NCBI GenBank assembly: GCA_964491605.1
Contig: CAZBGY010000002.1
Span: 82,829-146,828 of the forward strand
DNA: 64,000 nucleotides
Source: an uncultured Candidatus Bathyarchaeia archaeon
Lineage (GTDB): Archaea; Thermoproteota; CALKCG01; B24; DRYS01
Direction of reading: 5' to 3'
The notes under the pieces are model-generated. The model was given only the letters and a program-made list of their open reading frames with translations, was not told the origin of the DNA and searched no databases. Shown one piece after another: positions 27,808 through 37,782 of the stretch. Every line of letters begins with the position of its first letter. The first letter of the stretch is position 1. The position numbers and the translations under genes were made by a program.

Positions 27808-27859
27808 TCCTAATCAAGGAGATTTGTAACGATTGGAGCTTAAGCTTGGAGGAGGAGAG

Positions 27860-29260
27860 TTGAGACTAAAAGAATGCTGTGGGGTATTCGGAGCTATTTC
27901 TAGTACTTTGCCTAACATTGGTGTAGCTGAGCTGATATTCCATGGATTACTAGCTCTTCAACATAGAGGACAAGAATCCGCAGGGATTAGCGTAGTTAGC
28001 CATGACCGCCTACATACTTATAAGGGGTTAGGCTTAGTTTCGGGGGTATTCAATCCGAGAAGATTAAAGTCTCTCGATGGTATATGTGGGATAGGCCATG
28101 TGAGGTATTCTACTCGCGGTGCGAATAGACTGGAGAATAGTCAGCCTATGGAGTTCGATGGTAGACCAAGATTTTCACTCTGCTTTAACGGTACCATCGC
28201 TAACTATGAGCAACTTAAGAGAGAGTTGGAGAGTGAAGGATACTGCTTCTCCACGACCTCGGATCTAGAGGTTATCGGTTATCTTATATCGAGATATCTT
28301 AGGAAGGGGGGTAGTCTAGTAGATGCTATAGAGTATGCTATGCGAAGACTCATCGGAGCATACTCGGCTGCATTACTTACGGAGGATAAGTTACTATTAG
28401 CTTTCAGAGATCCATACGGAATTAAACCTCTATGTATAGGTGTTGGAGAGGATTCAAGCTACTTTCTCTCATCTGAAAGTTCAGCTTTCGATGCTACAGG
28501 AGCTAGATTTGTGAAGGATGTATCCCCAGGTACTGTTATCCTGATGGATGGGGAGCCTGTAGAGATAGGCTGCATGGAAAGTAGTAGGCATGCACACTGT
28601 ATGTTTGAATGGGTTTACTTTTCACGTCCAGATTCAACGATAGAGGGTGTAAGCGTATATGAGGCTAGGTATAGGCTTGGAAGGAAGCTTGCAGAACTAT
28701 GCAGCATGGATGCGGATATAGTTGTACCAGTACCGGAGACTAGTAGGATAGCTGCGTTAGGATTTTCTGAGAGAAGCGGGATCCCGTTAGCTGAAGGGTT
28801 CAGCGTCAATAGGTATGTATGGAGGACGTTCATAATGCCTGAGGAGAGGGGGGAGTATGTATCCGTGAAATTTAACCCTATAAGGGAGGTTTTAAGGGGG
28901 AGACGCGTTATGGTAATCGATGATAGTATAGTTAGGGGAACAACTTCTAGAACCCTTGTTTCTATCCTCCGCAAAGCTGGTGCTAGAGAAGTTCATCTAG
29001 CGGTTACATGCCCGCCGATAATCTCGCCATGCTATATGGGTATAGATTTCCCGACGTATGACGAGCTTATAGCTTATGGTAGAAGCTTAGAGGATATTAG
29101 GAGGAGTATAGGCGCCGATAGCTTAACCTATATGACGGTAGATGGATTGGTGGAATGTATAGGTATAGGTGAATCGGAGCTTTGTCTAGCTTGCTTAACA
29201 GGTATATACCCGATAGAGGTTGACCCTAAACTTCTAAGCAGGAGGTGGATTAAGGATTGA
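27860..29260 (+). CDS. purF: Amidophosphoribosyltransferase (glutamine-PRPP amidotransferase)
   Basis: Short propeptide followed by CGVFG (Ntn Cys), HVRYST, FNGTI, VIDDSIVRGTT (PRPP loop) and Cys ligands for an Fe-S cluster. The TTG at 27860 follows GGAGGAGGAGAG. The track start is TTG 27833. Confidence 0.9.
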   Translation: MRLKECCGVFGAISSTLPNIGVAELIFHGLLALQHRGQESAGISVVSHDRLHTYKGLGLVSGVFNPRRLKSLDGICGIGHVRYSTRGANRLENSQPMEFDGRPRFSLCFNGTIANYEQLKRELESEGYCFSTTSDLEVIGYLISRYLRKGGSLVDAIEYAMRRLIGAYSAALLTEDKLLLAFRDPYGIKPLCIGVGEDSSYFLSSESSAFDATGARFVKDVSPGTVILMDGEPVEIGCMESSRHAHCMFEWVYFSRPDSTIEGVSVYEARYRLGRKLAELCSMDADIVVPVPETSRIAALGFSERSGIPLAEGFSVNRYVWRTFIMPEERGEYVSVKFNPIREVLRGRRVMVIDDSIVRGTTSRTLVSILRKAGAREVHLAVTCPPIISPCYMGIDFPTYDELIAYGRSLEDIRRSIGADSLTYMTVDGLVECIGIGESELCLACLTGIYPIEVDPKLLSRRWIKD

Positions 29261-30543
29261 GCGGGATTCTAGGTATATACGCTTTCGATGAGCTATGGTC
29301 TATATCTAGATTCCTATACTATGGTTTAATGGGTCTTCAACATAGGGGGCAGGAGTATAGCTCCATAACTACATGGAGGGATGGGGAGATCTATACGAAA
29401 ACATCTAAAGGGTTAGTTGAGGAGGGATTTACAGAATCTAGTATCGGTAGGCTCAAAGGGTATGTAGGATGCGGATGCGTATCCACGAATAGGAGGCTTG
29501 GGCGACCTATCATCATATCTAGGAGTGAGACAACCCTAATCCTATACGCTTCTGGAGGCTTAATCGACGCAGAGTTCCGTGAGTTAGCTGAGTTCCTTAC
29601 AGATGAGATTAAGAAGAGCGATATAGAGCAAGCTGGGTTAGCGGTTTTAGAGAAGTTTAAAGGAGGGTATAGTTTCATATGCATCACTAGCGATGGACGT
29701 ATGCTAGCAGCTAGAGACCCCTTAGGGGTTAAACCTCTATGCGTAGGTGGACTTGGCTTCGATTTAGCCGTATTAGCCTCCGAATCTTCCGCTCTAGATG
29801 TAGTCGGAGCCGATCTATCTAGAGATATAGAGCCTGGAGAAGTATTTGCTATCGAGAAGTTTGATATAAGAAGAGGGGTTATGAATTGTAGGAGAAGAGC
29901 GTACTGTTCATTCGAATACGTGTACTATGCTAGACCAGACTCCATAATCAACGGTATACATGTATACGATGTGAGGAGGAGGATAGGATTTATTCTATCT
30001 GAGATGGATCCTGTAGAAGCGGATATAGTTATAGGAGTCCCGGAGACGGCTGTACCGTTCGCTATGGCTTATTCTCAAGCTACAGGTATACCTGTGGAGG
30101 TAGGCTTCTACAGGACTGGTAGGAGTATGAGAACCGCGATAAGACCTACAGAGATCGAGAGGTTGATAGGCGTTCAGCTTAAATTGAATCCGATTAGAGC
30201 TGCTGTCAAAGGGAAAAGAGTGGTTTTGATAGATGATAGCGTCGTTAGAGGTACGACTCTTAGGAATACTGTATACCTGCTAAGAAAGAGGGGGGCGAAG
30301 GATGTCCATGTAAGGATAGGTAGCCCGGCTATAAGAGCTAGATGCCCCTACGGTACGGCTGTCCCATCTGAAGACGAGCTTATAGGTAGAGCTCTAACAC
30401 CTGAGGAGATAGCTGAAGTTATAGGTGCTGATAGTTTCAGCTATCTACCCGTGGATGGGCTTATCGAAGCTATAGGTCTACCCGGAGATTCACTATGTCT
30501 AGGATGCTTCACTGGAACATATCCTGATATCGAGGTGGTTTAG
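29257..30543 (+). CDS. PurF paralog with degenerate glutaminase domain (Ser replaces the Cys1 nucleophile)
   Basis: Starts MSGILGIY instead of MCGI/CGVFG. HVRYST is replaced by GCVSTN and (H/F)NG(N/T) by ASGG. The PRPP loop LIDDSVVRGTT is retained. The TTGA start overlaps the purF stop. Confidence 0.8.
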   Translation: MSGILGIYAFDELWSISRFLYYGLMGLQHRGQEYSSITTWRDGEIYTKTSKGLVEEGFTESSIGRLKGYVGCGCVSTNRRLGRPIIISRSETTLILYASGGLIDAEFRELAEFLTDEIKKSDIEQAGLAVLEKFKGGYSFICITSDGRMLAARDPLGVKPLCVGGLGFDLAVLASESSALDVVGADLSRDIEPGEVFAIEKFDIRRGVMNCRRRAYCSFEYVYYARPDSIINGIHVYDVRRRIGFILSEMDPVEADIVIGVPETAVPFAMAYSQATGIPVEVGFYRTGRSMRTAIRPTEIERLIGVQLKLNPIRAAVKGKRVVLIDDSVVRGTTLRNTVYLLRKRGAKDVHVRIGSPAIRARCPYGTAVPSEDELIGRALTPEEIAEVIGADSFSYLPVDGLIEAIGLPGDSLCLGCFTGTYPDIEVV

Positions 30544-32013
30544 ATGAAGATTCTACTCGTAGGTGATGGATCTAGGGAGCATGCGATAGCCGAGGCTTTA
30601 GCTAGGAGCGTGAAGGAGCCTAGGATCTATGCTTTAATGCATTTAATTAACCCAGGGATAGCTAGGGTATGCAGACAAAGTGGGGGGGATTATCGTAGAG
30701 GCTCCCCGATAGATCCCATCCAGGTAGCAGACTATGCAGAAGAGTTGAATGTGGATTTCGTATTCGTAGGACCTGAAGAGCCTTTATTCCATGGAGTAGC
30801 CGATGAGGTTGAACGTAGGGGTATAGGATGTATAGGTGCACATAAAGCTGTAGCGGAGATAGAGATGTCTAAAGCCTATATGAGGAGGCTCATGTGGAAG
30901 TATGAGATACCTGGGAGGCTTAGGTTTAAGTCTTTTAGAAGCATCGAAGATGCCATAGCGTACATAAGCGAGTATGCTGAAAGCTTAGCTATAAAACCTG
31001 CTAGGCAAGCTGGTGGTAAGGGTGTTAAGGTTATAGCGGATATGCAGGCATACCTTTCTGGGGAGAAGAGAGAGGTAAAAGCTAAGCATGCCGAAAGAGT
31101 TGTTAAGGAGCACATGAAGGATTACACGGATATAGAGGATAAGATTCTATTAGAGGAGAAGGTTGAGGGCCCTGAGTATACGCTTCAATGCTTCAGCGAT
31201 GGGGAAACGATACTCCCCATGCCTCTAGTCCAAGATAATAAGCATGCCTACGAGGATGATCTAGGGCCTGAAACAGGCGGTATGGGTTCTATATGTGGTA
31301 AAGGGTTAACCCTACCGTTCATAACCATGGAGGAGTATAGTAGATCTGTCGAGATAGTTAAGAGGATGGTTGAAGCTGTACAGAAAGAGACCGGCGAACC
31401 GTATCGCGGTGTAGTCGCGGGGCAGATGATGCTAACCGATAAATGGGGTCCGACGATAATAGAGATGTATAGTAGATTCGGACAGCCTGAAGGAGAGAAT
31501 ATTCTCCCCCTACTCGAAACGGATATGGTGGAGATATGCGAAGCTATACTCGAACGGAAGCTTTCGAAGATTAAGCTTGAATTCCGTGAGAAAGCTTCTG
31601 TTGTTAAGTGTATCGCTCCGCTCGGCTATCCTGAGAGGAGGGATCTAGCTAGAGGTCATCCTATAGCCGCAGATGAAGAAGCTATAGTTAGGAGGGGAGG
31701 GAAGCTTTTCTGGAGTTCTATAGATATGGTGGATGGGATACTGATAACCGGCGGATCGAGAGCATGCGAGATCTATGCTGAAGCAGATAGCATAGAGGAA
31801 GCTTCTGAGATAGCTGAGAGGTGCATACCTTACGTGAAGCTTCTAGATGGGTGGAGGTTATTCTATAGAAGCGATATAGGCACTCCAAGATCCCTGGAGA
31901 AGAGGAAGAGGCTCGCTGATCTCGTACGTGAGATATACCAGTATAGAGAGAGGAAAGGTATACTCGGTCGAACCATAGATTGGATACCTGGCAGGGGGAA
32001 GATAGAACTATAG
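30544..32013 (+). CDS. purD: Phosphoribosylamine-glycine ligase (with ~60 aa C-terminal extension)
   Basis: [14 protein letters not shown] start and ATP-grasp body. At 489 aa it is longer than the usual ~430 aa. Confidence 0.9.
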
Positions 32014-36178: not shown

Positions 36179-36667
36179 GTGATGCAGAAATCAGTTAGTG
36201 CTTGGAGGATCTACGTAAGCTATAGTCAAGATACACTAGATCCAGTCAGTAAAAGGGTAAGATGGGAGATAGAGGATATGGGTGTGAAGGGTGTGGATAA
36301 GGTGAAGGTGATTCAAGGCTTCAGATTAATAGGGGATCTCTGCGAGGATCATATCAGACTCTTATGTGAAGAGCTTCTCTACGATCCTATAATCCAGGAG
36401 TATACGTACTTTTTGGAGGGGGAGCGTGATATCCAGCTGGATGGATGGATTATAGAGGTGAAGTATAAACCCGGAGTATTCGATAGCCTTGCTTCAAGCA
36501 TATTGGAGGCTTCGAGGATTATCGGCGTCGACAGCCTGTCATCCGTAGAAACTTTCACATTATACGTCCTCTATGGATGCCTAGATTATGATAGAGTCGA
36601 GCTGATAGCTAGGAGGTGTTTAGCAAATCCCATAATACATGATTATAAGATACTCCCGCCGATGTGA
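36179..36667 (+). CDS. purS: Tandem-fused PurS-PurS (FGAM synthase PurS component, duplicated)
   Basis: 162 aa made of two ~80 aa PurS-like halves (WRIYVSYSQDTLDPVS...; WIIEVKYKPGVFDSLAS...). Confidence 0.7.
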   Translation: MMQKSVSAWRIYVSYSQDTLDPVSKRVRWEIEDMGVKGVDKVKVIQGFRLIGDLCEDHIRLLCEELLYDPIIQEYTYFLEGERDIQLDGWIIEVKYKPGVFDSLASSILEASRIIGVDSLSSVETFTLYVLYGCLDYDRVELIARRCLANPIIHDYKILPPM

Positions 36668-37782
36668 TTTTAGGCTTGAGGATAAGAGCGGTAACTCTAT
36701 TCCTAGATCTAACAGGTAAAGATGCGATAGCTATTAGAAGTTATCTCGAAGATAAAGTTCGATCCTTTCTAGAGGCTATAGATGAGTTTAGATCTAAAGG
36801 TATCATCTGGGGTAGAGGTGTGAGATTATCGGTATCCCATCCGTGTAAGGGGGAGGAGAAGGTAAAGCTGGCTAGGATTGTTAGAGAGGAATGTGAAAGT
36901 ATAGGGGTTAACATGATCTCAGGATTCGTATACGATGCAGCCGTAGATGATCCTAAGATAATCGAAAATCTATCTAGCATAGGCGTATATATATCGGTTA
37001 AACTGAGTTCACCTATATATTATGGTAAAGTCGTAGAATTGTTATCCAAGATCTCGTATAAAGATCCTATATCGCTAACCAGGATAGCCACCCTACTCGG
37101 TGAAGAAGGAGATTTCCTTACTCCATATTTTCCGTTGTCTATGAATACAAGGTATGGTGAGGGGATTGCTTTAGCGTTACTGTACGCTAGAGATCTGATA
37201 GATACTTATAGAGCCGAAGGGTTATCCGGTATGGTAGAGTCAGCTTGTAGAATCCTATCCCAAGCAGAATCTATAGGTAGATATATAGCTTCGAGGATGG
37301 GTGTCGATTACTACGGATTAGACTATTCGCTATCCCCTTGGATGGATGATTCCGTAGCCCTCCTTATAGAGGAGATATCCGAATCTACTCTCCCAAATCC
37401 TGGATCTCTACATACAGTCTCTAGAATCAATAGCCTTATACATGAAGCAGCTACTAGATGTGGAATCCTTCCTACAGGCTTCTGCGAAATCATGCTACCA
37501 GTAGCTGAAGATAATATACTTAAGGAGAGAGTGCGTGAGGATATGCTTAGGTTAAGAGATCTGATAGCTCTCTCGTTATTCTGCGTAGCAGGCGTAGATA
37601 TGGTTGTTATACCAGCTGAGATACCTAAGAAGGTGCTACTAGGTGTGATGCTAGATTTATCAGAGGTGAGTAAGCTTAAAGGTAAGCCTATAGGGTTGAG
37701 GGTTATACTATATCCCGGGGTTAAACCTGGAGATCGAATCGATCTTGGGGTATTCGGAGAGACGCCTGTAATCGAAGTCTAG
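36664..37782 (+). CDS. DUF711 / UPF0210-family protein
   Basis: N-terminal IRAVTLFL, C-terminal MLPVAED, VAGVDMVVIP and R.I..PG.KPGD...LG.FGE..V blocks, as recalled for UPF0210. The GTGA start overlaps the purS stop. The gene ends 2 nt before the purL ORF. Confidence 0.6.
   Translation: MILGLRIRAVTLFLDLTGKDAIAIRSYLEDKVRSFLEAIDEFRSKGIIWGRGVRLSVSHPCKGEEKVKLARIVREECESIGVNMISGFVYDAAVDDPKIIENLSSIGVYISVKLSSPIYYGKVVELLSKISYKDPISLTRIATLLGEEGDFLTPYFPLSMNTRYGEGIALALLYARDLIDTYRAEGLSGMVESACRILSQAESIGRYIASRMGVDYYGLDYSLSPWMDDSVALLIEEISESTLPNPGSLHTVSRINSLIHEAATRCGILPTGFCEIMLPVAEDNILKERVREDMLRLRDLIALSLFCVAGVDMVVIPAEIPKKVLLGVMLDLSEVSKLKGKPIGLRVILYPGVKPGDRIDLGVFGETPVIEV

Follow-up and report, generated by a model that had tools for sequence, protein, structure and literature searches.

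The window analysed here (the whole stretch of DNA, 64 kb from a Bathyarchaeia archaeon) has on its + strand a tandem pair of full-length PurF-like genes, followed by purD. A preliminary description of the sequence had read the first as a canonical glutamine phosphoribosyl pyrophosphate (PRPP) amidotransferase and the second as a paralog without the glutaminase residues. We report that this second copy is a member of the already known PurF' family, rediscovered in a new lineage, and that PurF' co-occurs with a distinct, long type of PurD. The features of the locus are as follows.

27833-29260, + strand: purF, canonical glutamine PRPP amidotransferase, 475 amino acids (aa); TIGR01134 454 bits against a cut-off of 350, motifs present.
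29241-29247, + strand: Shine-Dalgarno-like GGAGGTG, read from the sequence, within the end of purF and 9 nucleotides (nt) before the TTG of purF'.
29257-30543, + strand: purF' (copy 2), predicted glutaminase-dead PurF paralog, 428 aa, TTG start.
29260-29262, + strand: Ser2 codon of purF', aligned to the N-terminal nucleophile (Ntn) Cys1 of Bacillus subtilis PurF (1ao0).
29473-29490, + strand: GCVSTN of PurF' (residues 73-78), in place of GHVRY(S/A)T, with loss of the Arg for the glutamine carboxylate and of the coupling Tyr.
29545-29559, + strand: YASGG of PurF' (residues 97-101), in place of the (H/F)NG(N/T) oxyanion segment; Asn replaced by Ser, Gly kept.
29902-29943, + strand: YCSFEYVYYARPDS, with the first iron-sulphur (Fe-S) ligand Cys217 and the conserved Y..RPDS segment, common to PurF and PurF'.
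30103-30195, + strand: flexible loop of the phosphoribosyltransferase (PRTase) half of PurF' (residues 283-313), hyper-conserved.
30226-30258, + strand: PRPP-binding loop LIDDSVVRGTT of PurF' (residues 324-334); Pfam Pribosyltran, 40 bits.
30340-30507, + strand: C-terminal Fe-S ligands of PurF', Cys363 (RCPYG) and Cys414 with Cys417 (CLGC), invariant in 78 sequences.
30544-32013, + strand: purD, long type, 489 aa, with a B-domain insertion and a C-terminal helix-hairpin; co-occurs with PurF'.
31885-32010, + strand: C-terminal helix-hairpin of the window PurD (residues 448-488), from model and alignment.

The first gene is canonical, as had been described. Its product has a 15-residue propeptide followed by Cys16 (LKEC-CGVFG), then GHVRYST (residue 89), FNGT (residue 118) and TSDLE (residue 142), and the C-terminal half carries IDDSIVRGTT and four Fe-S cysteines. 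The propeptide junction (27833-27880) holds an adjacent Cys pair (KEC-CGVFG), and alignment places the second of the two, Cys16, at the nucleophile position. The TTG of purF' (29257-29259) overlaps the TGA of purF (29258-29260), which confirms the reported overlap at 29257 and makes it 4 nt long, and the purF' stop immediately adjoins the purD ATG at 30544. GGAGGTG may act as the ribosome-binding element of purF'. An upstream start supplying a Cys was ruled out, in agreement with the preliminary description: the frame is shut by a TAA (29251-29253) two codons before the TTG. The two products are 38% identical (E 2e-89), and no third PurF-like gene was found in the source genome (1.53 Mb, 49 contigs).

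To locate the catalytic residues of PurF', we aligned it to B. subtilis PurF (1ao0; E 1.9e-83), whose numbering is used here. The protein begins MSGILGIY, with Ser2 aligned with Cys1. In the GCVSTN segment Cys74 falls on His70, Ser76 on Arg72 and Thr77 on Tyr73; in YASGG, Ser99-Gly100 falls on Asn102-Gly103; and the Asp127 segment is deleted. Arg30-Gly31 retain Arg26-Gly27. In the PRTase half, D326-D327 fall on the PRPP-loop aspartates, and the Fe-S ligands C217, C363, C414 and C417 fall on 236, 382, 437 and 440. Thus PurF' shares with the B. subtilis [4Fe-4S] enzyme (1ao0/1gph; TIGR01134) the two-domain fold, the Fe-S ligands, the PRPP loop, the flexible loop and the Y..RPDS segment, whereas it lacks Cys1, Arg72, Tyr73, Asn102 and Asp127, and its glutaminase domain is about 20 residues shorter. 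An AlphaFold2 model (mean predicted local distance difference test score 91.2) superimposes on 1ao0 with a template modelling score of 0.86; the N-domain is well ordered and the flexible loop is of low confidence, as expected for a mobile loop.

The motifs reported for copy 2 (MSGILGIY, GCVSTN, YASGG, LIDDSVVRGTT, YCSFEY, RCPYG and CLGC) and its Fe-S cysteine pattern are all present, and every sequence statement of the preliminary description is correct. The loss of Cys1, Arg and Asn also holds; the oxyanion Gly is kept, Gly100 lying on Gly103. As a glutamine PRPP amidotransferase (EC 2.4.2.14), the protein is deficient in Cys1 and in the Arg/Asn/Asp glutamine site and scores 307.6 bits with TIGR01134, in two separate stretches and under the cut-off of 350; it possesses the PRPP loop, the flexible loop and the four Fe-S cysteines. 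The TIGR01134 cut-off was rejected as a classifier of PurF and PurF' across genomes because many genuine archaeal PurFs score 340-355 bits. The residue-by-residue loss of the glutamine site supports the earlier prediction that copy 2 would be unable to use glutamine in the normal way.

Two PurF-like proteins, falling into two clusters, were reported for each crenarchaeon by Brown, Hoopes, White and Sarisky (2011, Biol Direct 6:63; PMC3261824), who named the Cys-less cluster PurF'. In that cluster the N-terminal Cys is replaced by a small residue, and the gene lies near purF and other pur genes; the authors suggested an ammonia-dependent enzyme and left the function untested. We constructed a tree of 68 PurF and PurF' rows (IQ-TREE quick mode; support by the Shimodaira-Hasegawa-like approximate likelihood ratio test, SH-aLRT). 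The window protein grouped with other downstream paralogs, among them one from Sulfolobaceae, in a 37-member clade (SH-aLRT 99), and the upstream, Cys-bearing partner PurFs formed a separate clade (support 96). Because this clade matches the published cluster, copy 2 is PurF': it clusters apart from PurF, lacks the N-terminal Cys and resides with purF beside pur genes. It is 48-93% identical to clade members, compared with 38% to the neighbouring PurF. PurF' is an ancient paralog of glutamine PRPP amidotransferase of the Fe-S type. The interpretation in the preliminary description is partly supported: the reading of glutaminase loss stands; what that description missed is that the family had already been named, by authors who had themselves made the ammonia proposal.

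The closest database proteins are labelled Bathyarchaeia, and those at about 50% identity carry the labels Nezhaarchaeales, Thermoprotei, Nitrososphaeria, Methanofastidiosa and Freyarchaeota. The family ranges over Thermoproteota, some Asgard archaea and proteins labelled Methanofastidiosa by their sources, and its members are routinely annotated as amidophosphoribosyltransferase despite their predicted inability to use glutamine. The window copy agrees with the 2011 set in being a second PurF-like gene beside purF, in its own cluster, with Cys changed to a small residue. It differs in its Bathyarchaeia origin, in its Ser start and in having Ser-Gly rather than the family's common Asp-Gly in the oxyanion segment. 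That paper reports neither the broader distribution, nor the Asgard members that retain Cys, nor the link with a separate type of PurD. Cys-less PurF duplicates also occur elsewhere. Mlab_0150 of Methanocorpusculum labreanum, like the window protein, is a PurF duplicate with Ser at the nucleophile position, and is a recent lineage-specific duplication (PMC3261824). In a Candidatus Omnitrophota bacterium (L067:5025-6446), a bacterial purF is followed by a very divergent PurF paralog (about 29% identity, MSGIFGT start), which has a very long branch outside the archaeal PurF' clade and is an independent Cys-less duplicate.

We compared alignment columns between 78 PurF' and 29 PurF sequences. Seven columns at least 90% conserved in PurF are lost in PurF'; all seven belong to the glutaminase site and none to the PRTase half. 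At the level of sequence, loss of constraint relative to PurF is thus limited to the glutaminase site. Forty-two columns are conserved and identical in both groups, including the DDS..RG loop, the four Cys and the Y..R.D segment. Across the 78 PurF' sequences 54 columns are invariant, among them C217, E220, Y223, R226, D228 and S229 of the YCSFEYVYYARPDS segment, D326, D327, S328, R331, G332 and T334 of the PRPP loop, and the PurF'-specific N-domain residues W14, F19 and Y22. Further, 28 columns are conserved in PurF' only, eight of them inside the flexible loop, which reads GF.RTGR..RTAI.PT..ER..GVQLKLNPI almost without variation and is the most conserved stretch of PurF'. Several partner PurFs have odd flexible loops. 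Complementary degeneration, in which PurF would lose its PRTase loop where PurF' exists, was considered and rejected, as genomes that lack PurF' (L090, L091) have PurFs with these loop types too.

When the window genes were compared with those of two congeneric genomes (dS near 1, so that the values are approximate), dN/dS of PurF' was 0.11 overall, 0.10-0.15 for the N-domain and 0.08-0.12 for the PRTase half; PurF gave 0.12-0.13. PurF' is thus under purifying selection over its whole length, with one site dead and the other intact.

Among the 120 nearest homologs of the window PurF', 118 of which have the N-terminus, position 2 is A, P, S, T, G or V, and K once. These are small residues that permit Met removal, which would fit a buried free N-terminus. 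Ser2 is kept within the Bathyarchaeia subclade down to about 50% identity; because the position otherwise varies, Ser2 is not, on alignment evidence, a conserved nucleophile. The Ser start emphasised in the preliminary description is therefore real in this protein and was given too much weight, being limited to one Bathyarchaeia subclade. The Arg column of the glutamine site has Arg in none of the 120 homologs. The Asn102 column is mostly Asp; the Bathyarchaeia subclade has Ser there, and Asn is found in the members that retain Cys and in a few more.

Ten of the surveyed homologs retain the propeptide and Cys. Such members, including that of Candidatus Jordarchaeum (L004:5872-7329) and one labelled Freyarchaeota, branch within the PurF' clade, so the Arg-Tyr pair appears to have been lost before repeated losses of Cys1. 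The Jordarchaeum protein, P0016, P0021, P0023, P0065 and P0112 retain the propeptide, Cys1, Asn-Gly and Asp; these Cys-retaining members read GHVSP instead of GHVRY and thus lack the glutamine-carboxylate Arg. They may represent a half-way stage or users of another amide donor.

The PurD encoded downstream of purF' also departs from the standard form. Long PurD has a B-domain insertion of about 15 residues (about residues 169-190 in the window PurD) and a conserved C-terminal tail, ...Y.YR...G.LG....W(I/V)PG.G..., without counterpart in standard PurD and modelled as a helix (448-470) and a hairpin (478-488). Long PurDs are 44-91% identical over Thermoproteota and Asgard archaea; the standard PurDs of related genomes reach at most 36-44% and are tail-less.

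We surveyed 301 Thermoproteota genomes for PurF' with a PurF' profile (A1) and locus inspection; in families f12, f18, f22, f23 and f38, PurF' was assigned from inspected examples and a two-match criterion. About 85 genomes have a PurF'-level match, and all but four of these also have PurF. Those four are fragmented assemblies, in three of which PurF' lies near a low-coordinate contig end. PurF alone is found in many Thermoproteota families. With the window PurD as query on the same genomes, 119 had long PurD (E <= 1e-106 for complete genes, 44-91% identity, alignment through residue 485-488) and 90 had standard PurD (<=36% identity, alignment ending near residue 447-465). The families in which long PurD occurs have two PurF-family genes, one of them PurF'; genomes with standard PurD each gave exactly one PurF-family match at E <= 1e-60.

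The pairing was also seen within families: on inspection, G064 differs from G072 and G088 (family f3), and G002 and G113 from G028 (family f5), in having purF-purF'-purD(long) versus purF-purD(standard) or purF alone. The candidate exception in these contrasts, G055, was set aside because its PurF' is a fragment at a contig end. Five further candidate exceptions to the PurD pairing (G005, G185, G245, G299 and G333) are fragmented assemblies, four of them with PurF' near a low-coordinate contig end. In a single genome, G295, PurD was intermediate: the order is purF-purD without purF', and the tail-less, euryarchaeal-type PurD is 40-42% identical to that of the window. Its locus (L098, G295:C18:43500-49500) reads purC-purM-purF-purD-folD-purN, an arrangement that may be ancestral or may have arisen by replacement of the module.

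As an independent replication we examined 101 Asgard genomes. PurF' was present in 17, of which 16 have long PurD (59-69% identity, starting 5-37 nt past purF'); the seventeenth has no PurD match. Of the 48 Asgard genomes with PurD and without PurF', none has the long type. Thus, no genome mixing PurF' with standard PurD was confirmed in the Thermoproteota and Asgard surveys.

Ten named loci had sufficient flanking sequence, and all of them show the order purF-purF'-purD; they belong to Jordarchaeum, Nezhaarchaeales, Nitrososphaeria, Methanomethylicia, Bathyarchaeia, Conexivisphaera and Sulfolobaceae. The gap separating purF from purF' is -22 to +24 nt, and that separating purF' from purD is -4 to +3 nt. 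When the three genes are split up, purF' remains by purD and not by purF: one genome (G053) has purC-purF'-purD with purF 6 kb off, in another (G289) purF is divergent from purF'-purD, and in family f12 purD and purF' overlap with purF 14 kb off. The link to purD, which the preliminary description had not considered, is the strongest contextual signal on PurF'. Because the pairing with long PurD survives these changes of gene order, survives complete unlinking in family f29, and spans phyla (Asgard long PurD is 66% identical to the Bathyarchaeia PurD, whereas a standard PurD of the same order reaches only E 1e-22 with the same query), the genomic pattern argues for a functional co-dependence of PurF' and long PurD that goes beyond linkage. 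PurF' itself was previously known; this pairing is a new, testable lead.

The window operon runs purF-purF'-purD-glyA-folD-purN-folC-purS(fused)-DUF711-purL-purQ; purE-purC-purM and thiC lie close by. A gene of 372 aa (36664-37782), located between fused purS and purL, matches NF003700 only in part and below threshold (PRK05313, hypothetical protein; 101.6 bits, cut-off 440).

Gene fusions were also sought among longer proteins, and only fusions of canonical PurF were seen. P0122 (1144 aa) contains PurC, PurF and PurD domains by Pfam, a natural PurF-PurD fusion that is relevant to the hand-off of phosphoribosylamine (PRA) between the two enzymes, and P0121 and P0123 (about 800 aa) contain PurF and PurM by Pfam content. 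Open frames of 943-994 aa that looked like Rosetta-stone fusions were resolved on inspection into separate purF, purF' and purD genes.

These data support the view that PurF' is a predicted glutaminase-dead, PRTase-competent protein at the step that makes and consumes PRA. The three roles proposed in the preliminary description, an ammonia-dependent PRA synthase, a partner of PurF and another phosphoribosyltransferase, are in our judgement the right candidates. What we infer concerns the catalysis of PurF', its nitrogen source and any complex. We rank first, tentatively and a little short of an even chance, an ammonia-using PRA synthase coupled to long PurD. PurF' would bind PRPP and form PRA from ammonia not made by PurF' itself, either free or supplied by PurF; it would act in physical or kinetic association with long PurD, perhaps also with PurF, and the very labile PRA would be handed directly to the PurD ligase. 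The model for such an enzyme is provided by Cys1 mutants of Escherichia coli PurF, which lose glutamine activity and still use ammonia (Mei and Zalkin, 1989, via PMC3261824); as in PurF', no glutamine-dependent activity is expected. However, those mutants are single laboratory substitutions, whereas in PurF' the whole glutamine pocket has been remodelled in an ancient, naturally selected lineage.

Several observations weigh against an ammonia-using synthase coupled to PurD. PurF' without PurF was found in no adequately assembled genome of the 301, which is not what a self-sufficient ammonia enzyme would predict; because PurF' is never alone in such genomes, it does not appear to be a replacement for PurF. 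Part of the co-occurrence of PurF' and long PurD is plain linkage of co-inherited adjacent genes, and family f29 is the only one in which purF', purD and purF all lie apart. The search of longer proteins yielded neither a PurF'-PurD nor a PurF-PurF' fusion, which is weak evidence. Feedback nucleotides also bind the PRPP site of PurF, and the conservation of this site in PurF' could serve regulation instead of catalysis. Further, we found no biochemical follow-up on PurF' since 2011 in the literature searched and know of no PurF' assay.

The alternative that survives best, which we regard as possible though doubtful, is that PurF' is a non-catalytic pseudoenzyme subunit, forming a hetero-oligomer with PurF, serving as a dock for long PurD, or both, with its PRPP/nucleotide site used for feedback or as a scaffold. 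A complete PurF always accompanies PurF', whereas PurF alone is common; purF' is tightly coupled in translation on both sides; its catalytically dead N-domain is under purifying selection with invariant W14, F19 and Y22; and the PRPP site of PurF doubles as a nucleotide inhibitor site, 1ao0 being an ADP/GMP complex. On the other hand, the most conserved stretch of PurF' is the catalytic flexible loop, and to our knowledge the sole role of this loop in PurF is to close over PRPP in catalysis. The absence of relaxed PRTase-half columns and of any fusion pointing to a fixed complex also speaks against a pseudoenzyme.

It is improbable that PurF' is a phosphoribosyltransferase recruited to another nucleophile or pathway and no longer forming PRA. 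The 28 PurF'-specific columns, with the flexible-loop change from NRYxGRTF to RTGRxxRTA, and the TIGR01134 score under the cut-off would suit such a change of substrate. However, in almost every examined locus the gene lies between purF and purD or beside purD, inside pur operons; PurF' co-varies with PurD type; and no consistent neighbours from other pathways were seen.

Ser and Thr serve as nucleophiles in other Ntn hydrolases, and Ser2, bared by Met removal and kept in the Bathyarchaeia subclade, might accordingly act as a serine nucleophile, leaving copy 2 an amidotransferase on glutamine or another amide. We consider this very improbable. A Ser/Thr nucleophile would be expected to be conserved at the mature N-terminus family-wide, whereas PurF' proteins carry A, P, G or V there as often as S or T. 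Moreover, the glutamine-binding Arg is absent from all 120 homologs, the oxyanion Asn has become Ser, the Asp127 segment is deleted, and the Cys1-to-Ser mutant of E. coli PurF has zero glutaminase activity (PMC3261824). Finally, a decaying, functionless duplicate, to which the lost catalytic residues of one domain might point, is effectively refuted by conservation and has a negligible probability: the reading frame is unbroken, both domains have a dN/dS of about 0.11, equal to that of PurF, and the clade is found in at least two phyla and keeps 54 columns invariant over 78 sequences.

PRA has a lifetime of only seconds, and its transfer from PurF to PurD has been a matter of debate since the 1990s. 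In Aquifex, PurF-PurD coupling seemed to require another factor, and Brown et al. relay the view that a further component is possibly needed in thermophiles for PRA transfer (PMC3261824). A more elaborate form of the ammonia-synthase reading, which we hold to be unlikely as a whole, is that PurF' and long PurD constitute a dedicated device for making and handing over PRA, inherited from thermophilic archaeal ancestors, in which the dead glutaminase domain and the flexible loop would dock the helix-hairpin or the B-domain insert of PurD; PurF' would then be the missing factor for PurF-to-PurD transfer. In much of the archaeal domain, PurF' sits at the first committed step of purine synthesis. 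The question of its function dates from 2011, and the strict pairing of PurF' with PurD type gives it a concrete experimental handle.

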